Below, in pieces: positions 10,448 through 55,370 of a stretch of 64,000 bases of DNA. The number at the start of each line of letters is the position of its first letter. The first letter of the stretch is position 1. The notes beneath the pieces are model-generated. The model was not told the DNA's origin. It did no database searches and worked only from the letters and a program-made list of their open reading frames with translations. The translations under genes and the position numbers were made by a program. The stretch comes from Escherichia phage CJY920, in sequence record PQ349265.1. One strand, written 5' to 3'.

Positions 10448-10570
10448 AACCCTGGTGGGCGGCTAGATGGGAAACTGTAGAGCCAGAGCCGGAAGAACCG
10501 GTTTACACTGATGAAGAAACAGTATATAATGAACCTACAATAAATGACTTAATTGATATGGAGATGGGAC

Positions 10571-11017
10571 ATGATTACAGTAGATAAGTGGTTTAGAATT
10601 AATCGTGCTGATATAGGGCTGTGTAATTACTGGCCGGAACTTAGTGCAGATACTGTCTTTAAAGTTCGTGAACTTGTAAAAGAATGTGAAGATGATATAG
10701 AACCTGATATTGGAATTATTGAAATTGAACTTTCTGATGGAAAGATTATTAACATTTACGATAAGCCAATTACATATTGGTGCTTGTGGAATACTGAATC
10801 AGTAGAAAATGGCGAAATTGAAGAAGTTGTAGAACGAGTTGATCAAGCTATTCATAAACCTAAAGCCGCTTTTCAAGGTGAACGCATTTCATATGCATTA
10901 GCTAAATTAGCTGCGCAAGAAAACAACGATGGCTATGAAGGAAATTTAATGCAAGCTGCGGCAGAATATATTGAATGGCTTGAAACTCAAATTTCTTTTT
11001 CTGACCGAGCGTTTTAA
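10571..11017 (+). CDS. hypothetical protein (148 aa; syntenic with T4 pin/49.x region)
   Basis: ATG preceded by GGAG; track ORF trimmed. Confidence 0.5.
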   Translation: MITVDKWFRINRADIGLCNYWPELSADTVFKVRELVKECEDDIEPDIGIIEIELSDGKIINIYDKPITYWCLWNTESVENGEIEEVVERVDQAIHKPKAAFQGERISYALAKLAAQENNDGYEGNLMQAAAEYIEWLETQISFSDRAF

Positions 11018-13945: not shown

Positions 13946-14163
13946 ATATGAACGAAGCTCTTATTAATGATTTACGTCTTGCCGGATATGAAGTAAATAC
14001 AAACGGCAGTGGTTTAACTCAAATTGAAGGAAATGGATTTATTCTTGAGTATGAATTTAGCCAATGGTGGTTATATGCTAATTACGGCGAATTGATTGAA
14101 TACGTTGACCAATTTGATTCACTAGATGCAGCTCTTGAAACGGCTAAGTTGATGAATGCATGA
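13942..14163 (+). CDS. hypothetical protein (73 aa)
   Basis: ATGA overlap. Confidence 0.5.
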   Translation: MNMNEALINDLRLAGYEVNTNGSGLTQIEGNGFILEYEFSQWWLYANYGELIEYVDQFDSLDAALETAKLMNA

Positions 14164-14429
14164 AATTTATTAATATTTCTATTACTATTGAAAATTATGG
14201 AATTTTCTATGTTGACCAATATATGAAAATTTCATTTTTCCCAAATAAGACTGGTGTTGGATATTGGGAAAGCCATGTTTCTGAATTAAATGAAAGTGAA
14301 TATGTTAGCACACATGAAAAGTTTTTAGACTTTTTATATCATGCTGATTTAACTAGTCATTACATAGATATTCATGAATTTAAAAAGATGATGGAGAAAG
14401 TGTTCCAAGCATACTGTTTACTTAGATAA
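14160..14429 (+). CDS. hypothetical protein (89 aa)
   Basis: ATGA overlap. Confidence 0.5.
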   Translation: MKFINISITIENYGIFYVDQYMKISFFPNKTGVGYWESHVSELNESEYVSTHEKFLDFLYHADLTSHYIDIHEFKKMMEKVFQAYCLLR

Positions 14430-14507
14430 CTGATATCCTCTATGCTTTAAGATAGATCTTCAAATATTATGATATAATAGATCTATGAATTGAGCTAAGA
14501 GGTGAAA

Positions 14508-15065
14508 ATGTCAGAAACTAAGCCTAAATATAATTACGTAAACAATAAAGAGCTTTTACAAGCTATTATTGATTGGAAAACAGAATTAGCAAATAATAAA
14601 GACCCAAATAAAGTAGTTCGTCAGAATGATACTATCGGATTAGCCATTATGCTTATTGCAGAAGGCTTATCTAAACGTTTCAACTTTTCAGGATACACCC
14701 AATCCTGGAAACAAGAAATGATTGCAGATGGTATAGAAGCTTCTATTAAGGGGCTTCATAATTTTGATGAAACGAAATATAAAAACCCACATGCATATAT
14801 AACTCAAGCTTGTTTTAATGCATTCGTCCAACGTATTAAAAAAGAACGTAAGGAAGTTGCAAAGAAATATAGTTACTTCGTTCACAATGTCTATGACAGT
14901 CGTGACGACGATATGGTTGCGTTAGTAGATGAAACTTTTATTCAAGACATCTACGATAAAATGACGCATTACGAAGAATCAACCTATAGAACACCAGGGG
15001 CTGAAAAGAAAAGTGTTGTAGACGATTCTCCTAGTTTGGATTTTTTATATGAGGCTAACGATTAA
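14508..15065 (+). CDS. 55: late-transcription sigma factor gp55
   Basis: 185 aa [23 protein letters not shown]...; matches remembered T4 gp55; GAGGTG SD. Confidence 0.9.
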
Positions 15066-15267
15066 CCTCTCCGGATTCTTGGAAGAAATACCTGAAGTTG
15101 AAGCTATTCCCTATTTACTTAAAATGTATCTCAGGGAAGTTTTAGCTCTTGACATTGATATTGATCCAGAAAATCCGTATGATACCGCTTTTAAATCTAA
15201 TGGTGTAGAATTAAACTATCGGTATCATTTAACAGATGATGATTTTTATTTTATATTAGAGAAATAA
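15049..15267 (+). CDS. hypothetical protein (72 aa)
   Basis: track ORF overlapping end of gene 55. Confidence 0.4.
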
Positions 15268-15268
15268 T

Positions 15269-15586
15269 ATGACTGATAAACCCGAAATTAATGATGAAGT
15301 GGAAAAGCTTATTTCTTCTATTGAAGAAAAGAACCGTCTTGAAGCAGAAAGAAAAGCAAATAAGTTATTGTCTAAAAATAAGCGCGAACTGAACCGTCTT
15401 TATAAACACGCTCAGATTGCAGCTGAAAACAATAATTTTGCTCAATACGAATATGCTATCAAGAAAAGTCGGGATATTCTAAAACAGCCATATAACGATG
15501 AACTCATTAGTATTCTTTGGAAGACTACTAGATCGCAGATTGAGGATATGATTGATGCTTACACACGTAAAATTCAAGCGTCTTAA
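15269..15586 (+). CDS. hypothetical protein (105 aa)
   Basis: track ORF. Confidence 0.5.
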   Translation: MTDKPEINDEVEKLISSIEEKNRLEAERKANKLLSKNKRELNRLYKHAQIAAENNNFAQYEYAIKKSRDILKQPYNDELISILWKTTRSQIEDMIDAYTRKIQAS

Positions 15587-28742: not shown

Positions 28743-29036
28743 ATGAAAATCGCTATTTTGGTTATTGCATTGGGTCTTACTGGTTGTGTAGCTCAAGGAC
28801 CGGTAGTAAATCAATCTGATGTAGGAAAAATTGTAAACTGTTCAAGCAAATTTTATAATCCTAATGTTAAGTGTTATAAAGAAGCTCCAAAACAGACAGT
28901 AGAACAAATGCAGGCGAATTTTGACGAAGCTATTCGTCCAGATGAATCTGCTCAAGCATATCGTAATTCAGATGTGATTACACGTGAAGAAAAAATTGAA
29001 AGTTACTGTGCCGAACTTTGGGCTAATTGGGCCTAA
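28743..29036 (+). CDS. putative lipoprotein (97 aa)
   Basis: signal peptide with lipobox-like LTGC. Confidence 0.55.
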   Translation: MKIAILVIALGLTGCVAQGPVVNQSDVGKIVNCSSKFYNPNVKCYKEAPKQTVEQMQANFDEAIRPDESAQAYRNSDVITREEKIESYCAELWANWA

Positions 29037-29131
29037 TAATTATCAATGGCGTACTGGTAAAAATGCTCCGATGGAGTATGTAGTAAATTCTTATAATTCA
29101 TGCGTAAAAAATTTGACTAAGTGAGGAAAAC

Positions 29132-42351: not shown

Positions 42352-42512
42352 ACAGAGATATGACGTTAGAAGAGGCCAAGGCTAAAGCAAATGAAGCATT
42401 GGATTTGCTTCTTAAAATTGGCAGTAAAATGATGGAAGAAAATGAGAAATATATCCAGGAAAACAAAATTCCTGACGGCCCATTAGTAGGCAAGAGGAAA
42501 TCGCATGATTGA
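42348..42512 (+). CDS. hypothetical protein (54 aa)
   Basis: short ORF, ATGA overlap. Confidence 0.35.
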
Positions 42513-42581
42513 AGTAGCAAAACATTATTCAATAGAATTTATGTCTAAAGAAGGTAAATCAGTAAATACACTTGATAAAAA

Positions 42582-42974
42582 GTGCTCATTAATTATTCCT
42601 TTAGCAGAAAATCCGGTATTTTAATTAAAGATATAAAAGAAAGAAAATATCCAGAAAATGTTATTCTAATTATAAAGCATACTGAAGATATTTTGCAGAA
42701 TACTGATTCACCATTTTCTTCTTCTGAAGATTTAACTATTAAAGGCTATAAAAGAGCTCATGAATATGGTCTTTTTGACCTGTTTGAAGACGATAAAGTT
42801 AAATTAGCGAGTCAACCTTTTAAAAGTAAAACATTCATTATTGAAGATATTAAAGATATAAATGCATTCGTTAAGATGGTCTGGGCTCATTTTGATGTTG
42901 GACTACGCTGGAGAATGTCCGAAGAAGAAAGAAAGATTATTGAAGCTAATCGTCAATTTGGTTTTTATCGCTAG
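42582..42974 (+). CDS. hypothetical protein (130 aa, start uncertain)
   Basis: track ORF. Confidence 0.4.
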   Translation: MLINYSFSRKSGILIKDIKERKYPENVILIIKHTEDILQNTDSPFSSSEDLTIKGYKRAHEYGLFDLFEDDKVKLASQPFKSKTFIIEDIKDINAFVKMVWAHFDVGLRWRMSEEERKIIEANRQFGFYR

Positions 42975-42982
42975 GAATTAAT

Positions 42983-43165
42983 ATGGATTTATTTGAGATG
43001 TTAGAAGATAATCATTCTACGAATATCCAGAATGATTCTAGTGATTATAAGAAAGAGTACCGTATAGTATTACAGAATTATGGAATTGAAGCCCCAGATG
43101 CTCTTCTAGAAGAACTAGCTTCATACCATCTTGACCCTCCGCCCTGGGCTCCCTGGGCAAAATAA
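42983..43165 (+). CDS. hypothetical protein (60 aa)
   Basis: track ORF. Confidence 0.4.
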   Translation: MDLFEMLEDNHSTNIQNDSSDYKKEYRIVLQNYGIEAPDALLEELASYHLDPPPWAPWAK

Positions 43166-43176
43166 TTCAAAAAGTT

Positions 43177-43208
43177 GTTTACTTTTTCCTTTCTAACGAT
43201 GATATGAT
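43177..43208 (+). promoter_or_regulatory. early sigma70-type promoter
   Basis: GTTTAC -35, TATGAT -10-like. Confidence 0.45.
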
Positions 43209-43234
43209 AGCTTCTGAAGTATATGGAGGCTATC

Positions 43235-43384
43235 ATGATTATTAATCCTGCAGATGTTGAACAGTTATCTATAAAAGCTGAAAGTGTCGATTTTCAATAT
43301 GATATGTATAAAAAGGTCTGTGAAAAATTTACTGACTTTGAACAGTTCAGTTCTTTGGCAATGTATGGAAGCCAAAAAGAATGA
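43235..43384 (+). CDS. hypothetical protein (49 aa)
   Basis: ATG after GGAGG SD downstream of promoter. Confidence 0.4.
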   Translation: MIINPADVEQLSIKAESVDFQYDMYKKVCEKFTDFEQFSSLAMYGSQKE

Positions 43385-43859
43385 AGCTCTTCATCGGCAG
43401 TTGAATAAAATCATTAAAAAGCATTTAACTGAATCACCTTATCAGTTATATCGTGGTATATCAAAATCGACAAAAGAGCTCATTAAAGATTTACAAGTTG
43501 GAGAAGTGTTTTCAACGAACAGGGTAGATTCATTTACTACTAGTTTGCACACAGCGTGCGGTTTTTCTTATGTTGAGTATTTCACTGAAATAATATTTCG
43601 CTTAAAAACTGACAAAGCTTTTAATTATTCTGACCATATCAGCGATATTATACTTTCTTCTCCTAACACTGAGTTTAAGTATACATATGAAGATACTGAT
43701 GGATTAGATTCAGAACGTACTGATAACTTAATGATGATTGTGCGTGAACAAGAATGGATGATTCCAATTGGAAAGTATAAAATAACTTCTATTTCAAAAG
43801 AAAAATTACACGATTCATTTGGAACATTTAAAGTGTATGATATTGAGGTAGTTGAATGA
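43284..43859 (+). CDS. modB: Mod-family ADP-ribosyltransferase (ModB-like by order; start uncertain, possibly ATG 43365)
   Basis: LYRG, SFTTS, QEWMIP motifs in ART spacing; tandem with second Mod gene. Confidence 0.6.
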   Translation: MSIFNMICIKRSVKNLLTLNSSVLWQCMEAKKNEALHRQLNKIIKKHLTESPYQLYRGISKSTKELIKDLQVGEVFSTNRVDSFTTSLHTACGFSYVEYFTEIIFRLKTDKAFNYSDHISDIILSSPNTEFKYTYEDTDGLDSERTDNLMMIVREQEWMIPIGKYKITSISKEKLHDSFGTFKVYDIEVVE

Positions 43860-50189: not shown

Positions 50190-50405
50190 ATGAAACGTAA
50201 AACTGTTCAGAAATGCACTAATGACGAATTTGAAGATGTATTATTCGATCCAGATTTGGTAGTGGTTCAAAAGGAACACACCATTAAGTTTACTCACTTG
50301 ACTTCGGTTTATGTTTATGAAAAGGTTGGTGATAAACAGCCAATTTACGGCGTATTTCGTGAAATTACTGAAGATGGCACAACTTACTGGAAGGAAATTT
50401 ATTAA
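50190..50405 (+). CDS. hypothetical protein (71 aa)
   Basis: ATG after GAGGAAATTG. Confidence 0.5.
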
Positions 50406-50824
50406 TGGCTATTAGATTTGAAGTTAATAAATGGTATCAATTTAAAAATAAACAAGCTCAAGAAAATTTTATTAAAGACCATATTAATAACGGAATTTAT
50501 GCGCGCCGTTTAGGTATGTATCCTTTTAAAATTTTAGATGTGGACGCTCTTGGGCGTCCTATTAAAATTTTGTCATCTACTGGAAATTTAGTACTATCTC
50601 CTGATAAAGATGTTTTGGATGAAGACTTTATTTGGCTTTCAAAAAGTGAAGCTGGGTTCTTTGATGAAGTTGAAAATCCATACCAGGCAGCTGAAGAACA
50701 AGAGCAGGAAGAGCAAGAACAAATAGAAGATTTCACAGAATTCCCGGTAATGAAAGTTACTATTGAAAATAATGAACAGGCATGGTCCTTGTATCAGATG
50801 TTGAAAGCACACTTTAAGGAATAA
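50405..50824 (+). CDS. hypothetical acidic protein (139 aa)
   Basis: track ORF, overlapping start. Confidence 0.55.
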
Positions 50825-50826
50825 TT

Positions 50827-51003
50827 ATGCCAATGTATGATTATAAATGCCAATCCGAAGATTGCGGGCATGAATATGAAAAAATTAAAAAGATTTCTGA
50901 ACGAGAAAATGATGTTTGCCCTAAATGTCATCGTTTGTCTACTCGTCGGCCTTCTGCTCCTAAGCATGTGAATGGTGGATTTTACGACTTACTTAAAGAG
51001 TGA
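50827..51003 (+). CDS. FmdB-like zinc-ribbon protein (58 aa)
   Basis: MPMYDYKCQSEDCGHEYE...CPKCH: Y-x-Y-x-C-x2-C ... C-x2-C pattern. Confidence 0.45.
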   Translation: MPMYDYKCQSEDCGHEYEKIKKISERENDVCPKCHRLSTRRPSAPKHVNGGFYDLLKE

Positions 51004-51005
51004 TT

Positions 51006-51377
51006 ATGTTTAAAATCGGTAAGAAATATCGTGTTCGCGAAGGTGAAGAAAAGAAATATCTACTTTCTTCTATTTATAGGAATGGTTCTATTAATGCCGT
51101 AATATCTACAAGTGAATTTATCGTTGAAGATATGAAAGGTAATAATGTTACAATGATTAGTACATCATCTGGAAATGATGGAAAAATTCTTCACAGTTTT
51201 CAGAGTAATGTTCTAATTTATGATGAAGAATTTGACTTCTTCGAAGAAGTTACAGAAGATTTTGATTTTGAATGCACTATCACTATGAAATCTGGTGACC
51301 CTCTTTCTTTTACAGTTAAAGATGAAAGAAGTCGCTTGAGAATTATTAGTCTCCTTCAAGCCATTAAATTTGAGTGA
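51006..51377 (+). CDS. hypothetical protein (123 aa)
   Basis: track ORF trimmed to ATG. Confidence 0.5.
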   Translation: MFKIGKKYRVREGEEKKYLLSSIYRNGSINAVISTSEFIVEDMKGNNVTMISTSSGNDGKILHSFQSNVLIYDEEFDFFEEVTEDFDFECTITMKSGDPLSFTVKDERSRLRIISLLQAIKFE

Positions 51378-51381
51378 AATT

Positions 51382-51644
51382 ATGAAATATGTTAATCGTT
51401 CTATCGCGGCATTAGTATTAGCAGTATATCTTTAGTAGGATGTACTGATGCTGATAATGCAACCAAAGTTTTGTCTTCAAGCGGGTTTACTAATATTGAA
51501 ATCACTGGATACAATTGGTTTGGTTGCTCTGAAAATGATTTCCAACACACTGGATTTCGTGCTATTGGACCTACCGGGCAGAAAGTAGAAGGAACAGTAT
51601 GTTCTGGGCTGTTCTTTAAGGATTCAACTATTCGTTTTAAATAA
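51382..51644 (+). pseudogene. lipoprotein gene disrupted by frameshift (signal peptide and mature part in different frames)
   Basis: MKYVNRSIAALVLAVYL then stop; downstream frame encodes ...SLVGCTDADNATKV... (LVGC lipobox) with no start codon of its own. Confidence 0.4.
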
Positions 51645-51662
51645 AAGGCCTTCGGGCCTTTA
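51645..51662 (+). terminator. UUCG hairpin
   Basis: aaggcc-ttcg-ggcctt. Confidence 0.5.
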
Positions 51663-51686
51663 GCTTTATGATTACCGGAGTATAAT
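51659..51686 (+). promoter_or_regulatory. candidate MotA-dependent middle promoter of gene 39
   Basis: AGCTTTA box-like, 12 nt, TATAAT. Confidence 0.45.
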
Positions 51687-51713: not shown

Positions 51714-53264
51714 ATGATTAAGAATGAAATTAAAATTCTGAGCGATATTGAACATATCAAAAAGCGTAGCGGCATGTATATTGGCTCTTCTGCTAATGAA
51801 ATGCATGAGCGCTTTCTGTTTGGTAAATGGGAAAGTGTTCAGTATGTACCTGGTCTTGTTAAGCTTATTGATGAAATTATCGATAACTCAGTAGATGAAG
51901 GTATTCGTACTAAGTTTAAATTCGCAAATAAAATTAGTGTTACTATTAAAAACAATCAAGTAACAGTTGAAGATAACGGTCGCGGTATTCCACAGGCGAT
52001 GGTTAAAACACCTACTGGTGAAGAAATTCCTGGTCCTGTTGCTGCATGGACTATTCCAAAAGCAGGTGGTAACTTTGGTGATGATAAAGAACGCGTCACT
52101 GGCGGTATGAATGGTGTTGGTTCTAGTTTGACAAACATTTTTTCTGTGATGTTTGTCGGTGAAACTGGTGATGGTCAAAATAATATTGTAGTTCGTTGTT
52201 CAAATGGCATGGAAAATAAATCATGGGAAACTATTCCAGGAAAATGGAAAGGAACTCGTGTTACTTTCATTCCTGATTTTATGTCATTTGAAACTAATGA
52301 GCTGTCCCAAGTTTATCTTGACATTACACTAGATCGTCTCCAGACACTTGCAGTAGTTTATCCTGATATTCAATTTACCTTTAATGGTAAAAAGGTTCAG
52401 GGCAATTTTAAGAAATATGCACGCCAATATGATGAGCATGCTATCGTTCAAGAACAAGAAAATTGCTCTATTGCGGTTGGTCGTTCACCGGATGGTTTTC
52501 GTCAATTAACTTATGTGAATAACATTCACACTAAGAATGGTGGCCATCACATTGACTGTGTTATGGATGATATTTGTGAAGACCTTATTCCACAAATCAA
52601 ACGTAAGTTCAAAATTGATGTGACTAAAGCACGCGTTAAAGAATGTTTGACTATCGTTATGTTTGTCCGTGATATGAAAAACATGCGATTTGATTCTCAA
52701 ACTAAAGAGCGTTTGACTTCTCCATTTGGTGAAATCCGTAGTCATATTCAACTTGATGCTAAAAAGATTTCACGTGCTATTCTAAATAATGAAGCAATTC
52801 TAATGCCGATTATTGAAGCTGCTTTGGCTCGTAAATTGGCGGCAGAAAAAGCAGCAGAAACTAAAGCAGCTAAAAAGGCTTCTAAAGCTAAGGTTCATAA
52901 ACATATTAAAGCGAATCTTTGTGGTAAAGATGCTGATACTACTCTTTTCTTGACTGAGGGTGATTCGGCTATCGGATATCTTATTGATGTTCGTGATAAA
53001 GAACTTCACGGTGGTTATCCATTACGTGGTAAAGTTCTCAACAGTTGGGGTATGTCATATGCTGACATACTTAAAAACAAAGAACTGTTTGATATTTGCG
53101 CAATCACTGGATTAGTTCTCGGTGAAAAGGCGTTTGAAGAAAAAGAAGATGGCGAGTGGTTTACTTTCGAACTAAATGGCGATACAATTATCGTAAATGA
53201 AAATGATGAAGTACAGATTAATGGTAAATGGATAACAGTAGGTGAATTACGAAAAAATCTATAA
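51714..53264 (+). CDS. 39: topoisomerase II large subunit gp39 (GyrB-like ATPase)
   Basis: 516 aa; GHKL ATPase motifs (IDNSVDE, GRGIP); GAGG SD. Confidence 0.9.
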   Translation: MIKNEIKILSDIEHIKKRSGMYIGSSANEMHERFLFGKWESVQYVPGLVKLIDEIIDNSVDEGIRTKFKFANKISVTIKNNQVTVEDNGRGIPQAMVKTPTGEEIPGPVAAWTIPKAGGNFGDDKERVTGGMNGVGSSLTNIFSVMFVGETGDGQNNIVVRCSNGMENKSWETIPGKWKGTRVTFIPDFMSFETNELSQVYLDITLDRLQTLAVVYPDIQFTFNGKKVQGNFKKYARQYDEHAIVQEQENCSIAVGRSPDGFRQLTYVNNIHTKNGGHHIDCVMDDICEDLIPQIKRKFKIDVTKARVKECLTIVMFVRDMKNMRFDSQTKERLTSPFGEIRSHIQLDAKKISRAILNNEAILMPIIEAALARKLAAEKAAETKAAKKASKAKVHKHIKANLCGKDADTTLFLTEGDSAIGYLIDVRDKELHGGYPLRGKVLNSWGMSYADILKNKELFDICAITGLVLGEKAFEEKEDGEWFTFELNGDTIIVNENDEVQINGKWITVGELRKNL

Positions 53265-54060
53265 TGACTTAATAGTGCGGGGTAAAACCCGCGTTTCTAA
53301 ATTTAAGGGTGAAATTCATCATATCCTTCCAAGATCAATGGGAGGTTCTGATGATAAAGAAAATTTGGTGAAACTGACTTTTCGTGAACATTTTTTAGCA
53401 CATTTTCTACTATATAAAATTCATCGTAATCGTGAAATGGCATATGCGATGAATAGAATGTTAAACACTGAAAAATATTTACGTTCTAGTAAATTATATG
53501 AAATTGCTAGAATTTACCATCAAAGAGCAGTATCTGAATGGTCAAAAAACTTTATGAAAGATAAAGTTTTAATGAGAAGTATTAAATCGGGTAAATGCGC
53601 CTTATTAATTAAAGGATCATTTAACCCAAAGGAATGGTGCGGTGTTAATAAAGGTGTTAAGCTTCCTGGAATTAAAGGCATGACATGCTTTAAAAATGAA
53701 AAAGGCGAAGTTTTTCGTCTTCATGTTAATGATCCACGCATTAAAGCTGAAAAATTAGTTGGTATTGGAAATACTGTTGCTGCTACTGCAAAAGCAGCTG
53801 AACTTGAAAAAGCGAAACCATGGTATAATAAATCAGCGACAAATCCAGAGGCTGTAAAATTAATACCAAATTTATATGAATGGTACGTCACGAAATATGA
53901 CCCCGATCATTATAAACGAACGGGAGTTGCTAAATGGAAATCAGTTAATAATATAACTGTGAATTCAAAATTATTCGGCCGAGCATTTAATGAATTTAAA
54001 CGCGGTTGGATTCCTGATGAAAAGTTCTATGAGGTGTATAATGAAATTTGTAAAAATTGA
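53242..54060 (+). CDS. mobA: Mob-type HNH homing endonuclease (MobA-like, between 39 and 60)
   Basis: MNYEKIYNDLI..., HHILPRSMGG...NLVKLTFREHFLAH; GTG start inside last 23 nt of gene 39. Confidence 0.75.
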   Translation: MNYEKIYNDLIVRGKTRVSKFKGEIHHILPRSMGGSDDKENLVKLTFREHFLAHFLLYKIHRNREMAYAMNRMLNTEKYLRSSKLYEIARIYHQRAVSEWSKNFMKDKVLMRSIKSGKCALLIKGSFNPKEWCGVNKGVKLPGIKGMTCFKNEKGEVFRLHVNDPRIKAEKLVGIGNTVAATAKAAELEKAKPWYNKSATNPEAVKLIPNLYEWYVTKYDPDHYKRTGVAKWKSVNNITVNSKLFGRAFNEFKRGWIPDEKFYEVYNEICKN

Positions 54061-54573
54061 TTCTTCTAGCGTTGATATGAAAAAATATAAATTGCAGAAC
54101 AATGTTCGTCGTTCTATTAAATCCTCTTCAATGAACTATGCGAATGTCGCTATTATGACAGACGCAGATCACGATGGATAGCCTTCGGGCTATCTATAGA
54201 AATACCTCATAATTAAGAGATTATTGGATTAGGTTCTATTTATCCTTCTCTGCTTGGATTTTTTAGTAATTGGCCAGAACTGTTTGAGCAAGGACGAATT
54301 CGCTTTGTCAAAACTCCTGTAATCATCGCTCAGGTTGGTAAAAAACAAGAATGGTTTTATACAGTCGCTGAATATGAGAGTGCTAAAGATGCTCTACCTA
54401 AACATAGTATTCGATACATCAAGGGATTGGGCTCACTTCAGCGGGATGAATATAAAGAAATGATTCAAAACCCTGTGTACGACGTAGTTAAACTTCCTGA
54501 AAATTGGAAAGAACTATTTGAAATGCTCATGGGTAACGACCCTGAACTCCGTAAAGATTGGATGCTAGGATAA
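54041..54573 (+). CDS. 60: topoisomerase II small subunit gp60, join(54041..54178,54229..54573) via 50-nt translational bypass
   Basis: MKFVKIDSS...AIMTDADHDG to take-off GGA then UAG; landing GGA 54226-54228; resumes LGSIYPSLLGFFSNWPELFEQGRIRFVK...; 46+114=160 aa. Confidence 0.85.
54179..54228 (+). other. gene 60 coding gap (ribosomal hop) with take-off stem-loop
   Basis: UAG stop inside UUCG hairpin (gga-tag-cc-ttcg-gg-cta-tc); matching GGA codons 50 nt apart. Confidence 0.8.
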
Positions 54574-55370
54574 TGAATTATCGTAAAATTTATGATAAAC
54601 TTATCGCTGCGGCTAAAAACCGCAGCACTATTCCTAATTATACTGAAACTCACCATATTTTGCCTAAATCTATGGGCGGGAGTAATGCTAAATCAAATCT
54701 AGTTAAAATGACCCCTAGAGAGCATTTTATCGCCCATTTATTGCTTTATAAAATTCATAAGAACCGTTCTATGCTTATGGCTATTAGAGCTTTTTACATG
54801 GGAGCTAGAAATTCTAGAGATTATGATTGGCTTAAACAAGAATTCTCTAAAGAGCACTCTAGATTTATGAAAGAATGGATTGCTAAAAATGGCAACCCAT
54901 TTAAAGGTAAAAAACATACTAAAGCAACAAGAGAATTAATGTCACATATTGCTTCACAACGTATAGGCGAATTAAATCCATTTTATGGTAAAACTCATAC
55001 GCAAGAAGCAATAGATAAAATAATACAGGCTAACAAGTTATCTTGGGAGAATGGGCGAAAAGCACCTGTAAAAACAAAAGAACACCAGGATAAAATAACT
55101 AAATCAAGAATGGAAACATTTAAAACAAAAGGATTTAAACCATACACTCCTAGGTCAGAAGAAACTAAAGCTAAGACTAGAGAGTTGTATAAATCTAAAT
55201 ATGAAAGAAGGCCTATAAGAATCACAAGTGTAAAAACAGGCGAAACTATTGATTTTAACTATCTTTATGAATTAAGGGAGTATTTAGATATAGGGTCTTC
55301 TAATATATTGAAAGCATTAAATAATCCTAACAGAACCTGCAAAGGTTATAAAATGTGTTGGATGTCCTAA
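54573..55370 (+). CDS. Mob-type HNH homing endonuclease
   Basis: MNYRKIYDKLI..., THHILPKSMGG...NLVKMTPREHFIAH; NUMOD3-like NPFYGKTHT; ATG overlaps gene 60 TAA. Confidence 0.75.
   Translation: MNYRKIYDKLIAAAKNRSTIPNYTETHHILPKSMGGSNAKSNLVKMTPREHFIAHLLLYKIHKNRSMLMAIRAFYMGARNSRDYDWLKQEFSKEHSRFMKEWIAKNGNPFKGKKHTKATRELMSHIASQRIGELNPFYGKTHTQEAIDKIIQANKLSWENGRKAPVKTKEHQDKITKSRMETFKTKGFKPYTPRSEETKAKTRELYKSKYERRPIRITSVKTGETIDFNYLYELREYLDIGSSNILKALNNPNRTCKGYKMCWMS

Follow-up and report, generated by a model that had tools for sequence, protein, structure and literature searches.

The early region of Escherichia phage CJY920 carries, directly upstream of the topoisomerase gene 39, a lipoprotein gene whose signal peptide and lipobox stand in different reading frames, and this raises the question of whether the split reflects an inactivated gene, a recoding site or an error in the deposited sequence. 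The stretch analysed here (64,000 nt of record PQ349265.1, referred to as the window) represents the early region of a Tequatrovirus (T4-type) genome, with the T4 minus strand on its + strand. Direct reading of the window places an ATG at 51382, from which 17 codons (MKYVNRSIAALVLAVYL) are translated before a TAG at 51433-51435, after which comes a second TAG; the statement in an earlier note on this DNA that the signal peptide is terminated by a stop codon is thereby borne out. The -1 frame is open from 51396, being preceded by a TAA at 51393-51395, and reads SFYRGISISSIS-LVGCTDADN...TIRFK up to a TAA at 51642-51644. The lipobox LVGC lies in this -1 frame, with its cysteine codon at 51441-51443 and 66 more codons beyond, and the distance from the leucine codon at 51432 to the lysine codon ending at 51641 is exactly 70 codons. 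No ATG, GTG or TTG was found upstream of the lipobox in the -1 frame of the window, in agreement with the same note, which had described LVGC and about 70 codons in another frame without a prior start. The earliest in-frame start 3' of the lipobox is a TTG at 51471, which would yield 57 aa devoid of a signal peptide. Where gp39.1 is otherwise one uninterrupted ORF of about 82-90 codons, the window holds two fragments in different frames.

A tandem TA duplication in gene 39.1

Alignment of the region to Shfl2, NBG2 and ASO78A, with a second alignment to T4, located the cause of the split in a 2-nt tandem duplication (GTATCT to GTATATCT) on the + strand within 51425-51428, in codon 16 of gene 39.1, and thus inside the interval 51424-51434 for which an indel had previously been proposed. 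The relatives read GCAGTATCTTTAG and the window GCAGTATATCTTTAG, so that TA in the former is TATA in the latter, the extra copy being indistinguishable among the two; the 2-nt insertion is also apparent relative to resequenced T4 and to six contigs that share the identical upstream protein. Both pieces are collinear with one 261-nt ORF of relatives, which answers the ortholog comparison that the earlier note had called for. The 5' fragment (51382-51435, + strand) comprises the signal-peptide n-region and hydrophobic core, is collinear with codons 1-15 of intact orthologs and ends at the TAG that the frameshift renders premature. The 3' fragment in the -1 frame (51432-51644, + strand) comprises, by comparison of the repaired translation with relatives, the lipobox L-V-G-C, a 66-residue mature domain with Cys48 and Cys73, and the TAA at 51642-51644. 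As judged by these alignments, the two pieces are one orthologous lipoprotein gene, the T4-type 39.1, and not a chance juxtaposition.

The surroundings of the gene point to the same identity. Upstream lie cef (50190-50405), goF (50405-50824), a 58-aa zinc ribbon of the 39.2 type (50827-51003) and, on the + strand, a 123-aa ORF (51006-51377); six other contigs encode an identical protein and, after it, an intact 39.1 of 86 aa. The split gene itself (51382-51644, + strand) is followed on the same strand by a terminator hairpin, AAGGCC-TTCG-GGCCTT (51645-51673), which is conserved in relatives and whose counterparts in NBG2 and ASO78A bear a terminator annotation; in a simple terminator scan this hairpin was left unscored owing to its short T tract. 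A T4 middle-type promoter of gene 39, with a GCTT box and TATAAT (51663-51686, + strand), is conserved with identical sequence, has its homologous position annotated in ASO78A and precedes gene 39 (51714-53264, + strand). As gene 39 has its own middle promoter, no polar effect of the 39.1 frameshift is expected. The locus accordingly occupies the position of gp39.1, directly upstream of gene 39 and followed by terminator and middle promoter, and lies, like gp39.1 (phrog_902) of JS98, KP185, PP01 and T4T, between the 123-aa ORF or 39.2 and gene 39. Farther downstream, a MobE-like HNH endonuclease ORF of 272 aa (53242-54060), like that of phage e11/2, interrupts the topoisomerase gene, leaving it as 39 and 60 (about 54100-54567), and a NUMOD3-containing ORF of 270 aa (54558-55370) lies between gene 60 and the rIIA region, gene 60 thus being flanked by two homing-endonuclease-type ORFs.

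The duplicated allele is private to the window. TATA at this site was absent among 50,697 phage records, the mutant 28-mer was not found in IMG/VR, JGI metagenome contigs or GTDB genome contigs, and megablast with a 41-nt query that had the duplication at its centre, and so could match only sequences sharing it, returned no match. The best of 452 phage records matched at 74/76, the shortfall being exactly the 2-nt gap, and the gene is an intact 86-aa ORF on all six contigs on which the upstream 123-aa protein is identical. Removal of one TA in silico restored a protein 100% identical to those of NBG2, LH2, Shinka and vB_Eco_BGP, and 98% identical to that of T4T, where the lipobox reads LIGC as compared to LVGC in the window. 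The window copy of 39.1 carries two private substitutions, both synonymous in the native frame. A decayed pseudogene would be expected to show multiple lesions and a dN/dS near 1; here there is a single lesion, the closest intact alleles differ by no nonsynonymous change, and without a second lesion or other decay in 39.1 the event must be either extremely recent or not real.

If the duplication is real, it would represent a slippage of TA to TATA in codon 16 of an early/middle gene that in relatives encodes an 86-residue prolipoprotein. Such a duplication would shift the frame by +2 and translation would stop after 17 residues, before the lipobox cysteine; as the remaining 70 codons are without a usable start, the allele would be null. 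Two other origins were considered and rejected: in a quasipalindrome-templated mutation the hairpin arm would be expected to template CA and not TA, simple tandem duplication being the better fit, and a TA microsatellite or contingency locus is at odds with the wild type, which has only a single TA(T).

Gene 39.1 in T4-like phages and in the T4 reference record

In relatives the gene is a single 261-nt ORF of 86 aa beginning MKY[VI]NRSIAALVLAVSLVGCTDADN..., annotated in Shfl2 as similar to gp39.1, and the repaired translation of the window copy matches phrog_902 over residues 1-86 (E = 9.5e-37). Homologs were detected by tblastn in 1,065 phage records, from T4-like phages of Escherichia, Shigella, Klebsiella, Serratia, Cronobacter, Enterobacter and Aeromonas and from a few unrelated phages, and fall into 49 clusters at 90% identity which, where named, are labelled 'gp39.1' or 'lipoprotein'. 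A single match covers at least 80% of the protein in 985 of the 1,065 records, and in a spread sample drawn from them 39.1 is uninterrupted in 59 of 60 rows, the sole interrupted copy being that of the old T4 reference. At 18 IMG/VR loci, with identities down to 51%, the gene occurs in the same place. The lipobox cysteine, Cys48 and Cys73 are each at least 90% conserved among 35 diverse homologs, and the domain stands behind a signal peptide for export in all 35 aligned. The family dN/dS is about 0-0.15, and the repaired window allele differs from four close alleles (including NBG2 and N2) by 0 nonsynonymous as compared to 6-12 synonymous changes; by these sequence comparisons the gp39.1 family is under strong purifying selection.

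The window copy retains the lipoprotein signature, with K2 and R6 followed by SIAALVLAV and L-V-G-C (family pattern L-[VAI]-G-C), in keeping with the bacterial lipobox consensus L-[ASVI]-[GA]-C, the lipobox being out of frame with the start. It shares with the family the signal peptide, the lipobox, the two conserved cysteines, the terminator and the downstream middle promoter; unlike in the family, its ORF is interrupted after codon 17 by the private 2-nt duplication, and as written no lipoprotein can be made. According to the E. coli Lol +2 rule, the residue after the lipid cysteine governs outer-membrane sorting. With Thr at +2 (the +1 Cys being followed by Thr-Asp) Gp39.1 would be expected to localise to the outer membrane. 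The mature part is predicted to form a small disulfide-containing domain with one helix and four strands. Neither Pfam nor NCBIfam returned a model matching gp39.1, and our literature search found no paper on its function. Llp of T5 and Cor of phi80 and N15 are receptor-blocking or exclusion lipoproteins of other coliphages which, like gp39.1, are small, phage-encoded, equipped with a classical lipobox and located outside the lysis cassette; a functional analogy is plausible, and a role of Gp39.1 in envelope modification or exclusion would be our guess. What the window holds is an ordinary frameshifted copy of an already known and conserved phage lipoprotein gene, and the family itself is strongly conserved, its homologs occurring in more than 1,000 phage records, some of them from phages that do not belong to the T4 group.

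A comparable frameshift is found in the public record of T4 itself. NC_000866/AF158101 annotates 39.1 as 65 aa from an internal ATG, without a signal peptide, and 39.2 as 45 aa; like the window, therefore, the T4 reference has 39.1 frameshifted near the lipobox, leading in its case to the truncated 65-aa annotation. The lesions, however, differ from that of the window. As compared to T4T and MT984581, the stretch NC_000866 5395-5845 has LINS in place of the lipobox LIGC, +1 T, another +1 T in 39.2 and about ten clustered substitutions, and a 100% match to it is offered only by M89919 and X06220, the source records of the 1980s. T4T and MT984581, both representing resequenced T4, contradict these lesions and encode an intact 86-aa lipoprotein (LIGC) as well as a 58-aa zinc-ribbon protein; the other resequenced T4-type records (KJ477684-6, RB55 and RB59) are likewise only 91% identical to the T4 reference over this stretch. 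AF158101 has been reported to contain artefacts, with about 172 differences, 75 of them indels (Subedi & Barr, PMC8573959). The truncated 39.1 and 39.2 of the T4 reference are thus, from these comparisons, probably 1980s sequencing errors, and the canonical record would mis-describe gp39.1, given as 65 aa lacking a signal peptide, as well as gp39.2, given as 45 aa. An independent loss of the lipobox by T4 itself was considered and rejected, since only old Sanger records carry that allele.

Possible recoding and internal restart

Before the split can be ascribed to a non-programmed event, it must be asked whether ribosomes could join the two frames, by a -1 or +2 shift or a hop at CUU-UAG in the hairpin loop region, to give the full-length lipoprotein. 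Certain features of the site are suggestive of this. The zero frame terminates at a shift-prone CUU-UAG that resembles the CUU-UGA carried by the frameshift site of prfB, an 11-bp hairpin (51422-51447) holds the stop codon within its loop, and re-pairing of the P-site Leu-tRNA by +2 onto UUA would restore ...AVYLVGC with the lipobox intact; furthermore, gene 60, also in this window, has a genuine bypass site. The slippery and bypass signals that programmed recoding would need are, however, absent. The sequence A UAU CUU UAG offers no X XXY YYZ slippery heptamer, and re-pairing from CUU to UCU (-1) or UUA (+2) would be poor; while the productive shift would have to be -1 or +2, CUU-UAG favours +1 (CUU to UUU), which meets a UGA after 4 codons. 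Stimulation would call for a structure 5-9 nt downstream or an SD-like element upstream; the hairpin here covers the site itself and is unremarkable (z = -2.0, with 8 of 200 shuffles folding at least as well). No landing codon in register matches the take-off codon, the sole downstream CTT (in GTCTTCA) being out of register with the ORF, and a search of the site against Rfam gave no match. Above all, the two-frame architecture is not conserved, all copies but the old T4 reference being single-frame in the 60-row sample and one match spanning 80% or more of the protein in 985 of the 1,065 records, and the insertion itself is private to the window. Programmed recoding at 39.1 is on this evidence effectively excluded, and we regard it as very unlikely indeed that ribosomes make the full-length protein from the sequence as deposited. 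Of the three options of the earlier note, then, recoding is rejected on account of the single frame in relatives, the private allele and the lack of slippery or bypass signals, while a pseudogene and a sequencing indel are both plausible.

The bypass site of gene 60 lies 2.7 kb downstream of 39.1, at 54176-54228, where a take-off GGA (54176-54178), a TAG (54179-54181), the hairpin GCCTTCGGGC and a landing GGA (54226-54228) delimit the 50-nt bypass. The T4 gene 60 site and the split in 39.1 have in common a stop directly after the last decoded codon and inside a hairpin; the former differs in that its take-off and landing codons are both GGA, at a distance of 50 nt, and in that it is conserved in phages with a split topoisomerase.

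Expression of the downstream piece alone, from the TTG at 51471 or from some other start within the gene, to give a functional 57-aa protein lacking a signal peptide, is the least probable of the readings considered and would in our view be exceptional. The TTG-initiated ORF does exist, and the signal-less 65-aa gp39.1 of NC_000866 might appear to be a precedent; that precedent, however, is itself probably an artefact of reference errors. In addition, TTG 51471 lacks a Shine-Dalgarno sequence, a gene with the 57-aa product was found in no record by exact look-up, and a domain with two conserved cysteines that is normally exported (as noted above, behind a signal peptide in all 35 aligned homologs) would be left in a signal-less form. 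A restart product of this kind, being a piece of an exported, disulfide-containing domain, is considered non-functional.

Mutation or assembly artefact, and other private frameshifts

The split in 39.1 is not the only private frameshift in the window. The homolog of imm.1 (28743-29121) is split in codon 98 of 126 by a private +1 C at about 29032 (GGGCTAA to GGGCCTAA), the best of 26 phage records differing by exactly this C. In the modA.3 homolog (42505-42971) a private 1-nt deletion at about 42617 (CCGGATATTT to CCGGTATTT) falls at approximately codon 38 of 156 and is exactly what sets the window apart from the best of 499 records; modA.3 is broken in phage e11/2 too, albeit at a different place. 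The ADP-ribosyltransferase gene modB (43223-43856) has a private +1 T at about 43347 (CAGTCAG to CAGTTCAG), at approximately codon 41 of 207, which is exactly the difference from its best record, and a private TT insertion is present in the T-run just upstream of modB, at 43186. In a whole-window scan against Shfl2, T4, NBG2 and e11/2, in which each genome was scanned against the others, counts were expressed per approximately 50 kb and most 'in-frame stop' rows were discarded as alternative-frame ORFs, the window had 4 split genes and 6 private short indels in addition to the 39.1 site. The corresponding numbers of split genes and private short indels were 0 and 1 for Shfl2, 0-1 and 3 for NBG2, 3 and 1 for e11/2, and 2-3 and 12 for the T4 reference. 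In e11/2 (KJ668714.2) fragmented modA.3 and mrh genes, at 14039-14646 and 14833-15319, are annotated in the GenBank genome, which shows that broken auxiliary early genes also occur in other deposited T4-like genomes.

From sequence alone, a real and recent null allele and an assembly artefact are inseparable; anything other than these two would be improbable. We infer, at roughly even confidence, that the duplication is present in the phage DNA and not in the assembly alone, the split then being due to a single tandem duplication of 2 bp that was not programmed, a real slipped-strand event of very recent date by which an auxiliary gene that the phage can dispense with lost its function. Each of the four private frameshifts in coding sequence (imm.1, modA.3, modB and 39.1) falls in an auxiliary gene and none in essential replication or transcription genes, nor is any of them located in a long homopolymer. 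The essential genes, which we take to span about 16-25 kb, an estimated 30-45% of the matched coding sequence, would be missed altogether by random errors with a probability of roughly 0.1-0.25, this figure resting on the assumed extent of essentiality. The private substitutions of the window are 74% synonymous, as in good modern genomes, whereas the nonsynonymous fraction of the T4 reference is 48%, and modA.3 and mrh are likewise broken in e11/2. Laboratory stocks of T4 acquire frameshifts of the duplication type in auxiliary genes, such as rI.-1 179dupG and arn 258dupA (Subedi & Barr 2021, PMC8573959); like the 39.1 lesion, these are short Streisinger-type tandem duplications that truncate a non-essential gene, growth being unaffected in T4. 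They differ in having been verified by resequencing of several sublines, whereas 39.1 here is a single unverified sequence from a region with a higher load, of four in about 52 kb.

This load counts against a real mutation, as four private frameshifts in about 52 kb are at or above the top of the comparator range (Shfl2 0, NBG2 0-1, e11/2 3), and so does the clustering of three private indels within 730 bp at 42617-43347, which suggests either poor sequence quality at this place or a region under locally relaxed constraint. The competing explanation, to which we assign somewhat less than an even chance, holds that 39.1 is intact in the phage and that the deposited consensus alone contains the extra TA, as well as the private indels at 29032, 42617, 43186 and 43347. 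It is consistent with an allele found nowhere else in a gene that is otherwise perfect, with 0 nonsynonymous changes, and with 6-7 private short indels and 4 split genes in the window as compared to 1-3 indels in three modern genomes and 0-3 split genes in the comparators. The change in imm.1, a C doubled before TAA, is of a form also seen in two insertions private to the T4 reference. Moreover, many of the differences between AF158101 and resequenced T4 are considered likely artefacts (PMC8573959), and in this very gene the frameshift of the T4 reference appears to be a sequencing error, both from that work and from the resequenced T4 examined here, in which it vanishes. Against an artefact stand the freedom of essential genes from indels, the location of the indels outside the long homopolymers where 454, Ion Torrent and nanopore errors concentrate, and a substitution-level quality of the window that is as good as that of modern genomes. 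Should the duplication prove to be a real null, the natural allele would be a ready-made tool for studying Gp39.1.

A further reading, which we hold to be unlikely, takes the four frameshifts in 39.1, imm.1, modA.3 and modB to be real and non-random, in that the lineage would have been selected to shed auxiliary genes that modify the envelope or the host, for example on a particular host or under a defence sensing early proteins, loss of Gp39.1 being part of that adaptation; in a weaker variant, low-level +2 slippage at CUU-UAG would supply a little lipoprotein. For annotation, 39.1 of this phage should be entered as a frameshifted copy, or be corrected once the region has been resequenced, and not as two small ORFs or a recoding site, and imm.1, modA.3 and modB in the window need the same check. 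The homolog of pin, encoding the Lon protease inhibitor (10553-11017), also ends early, at 154 aa as compared to 161-167 aa, because about 32 nt that Shfl2 and T4 possess are deleted at its 3' end (about 11009-11017).
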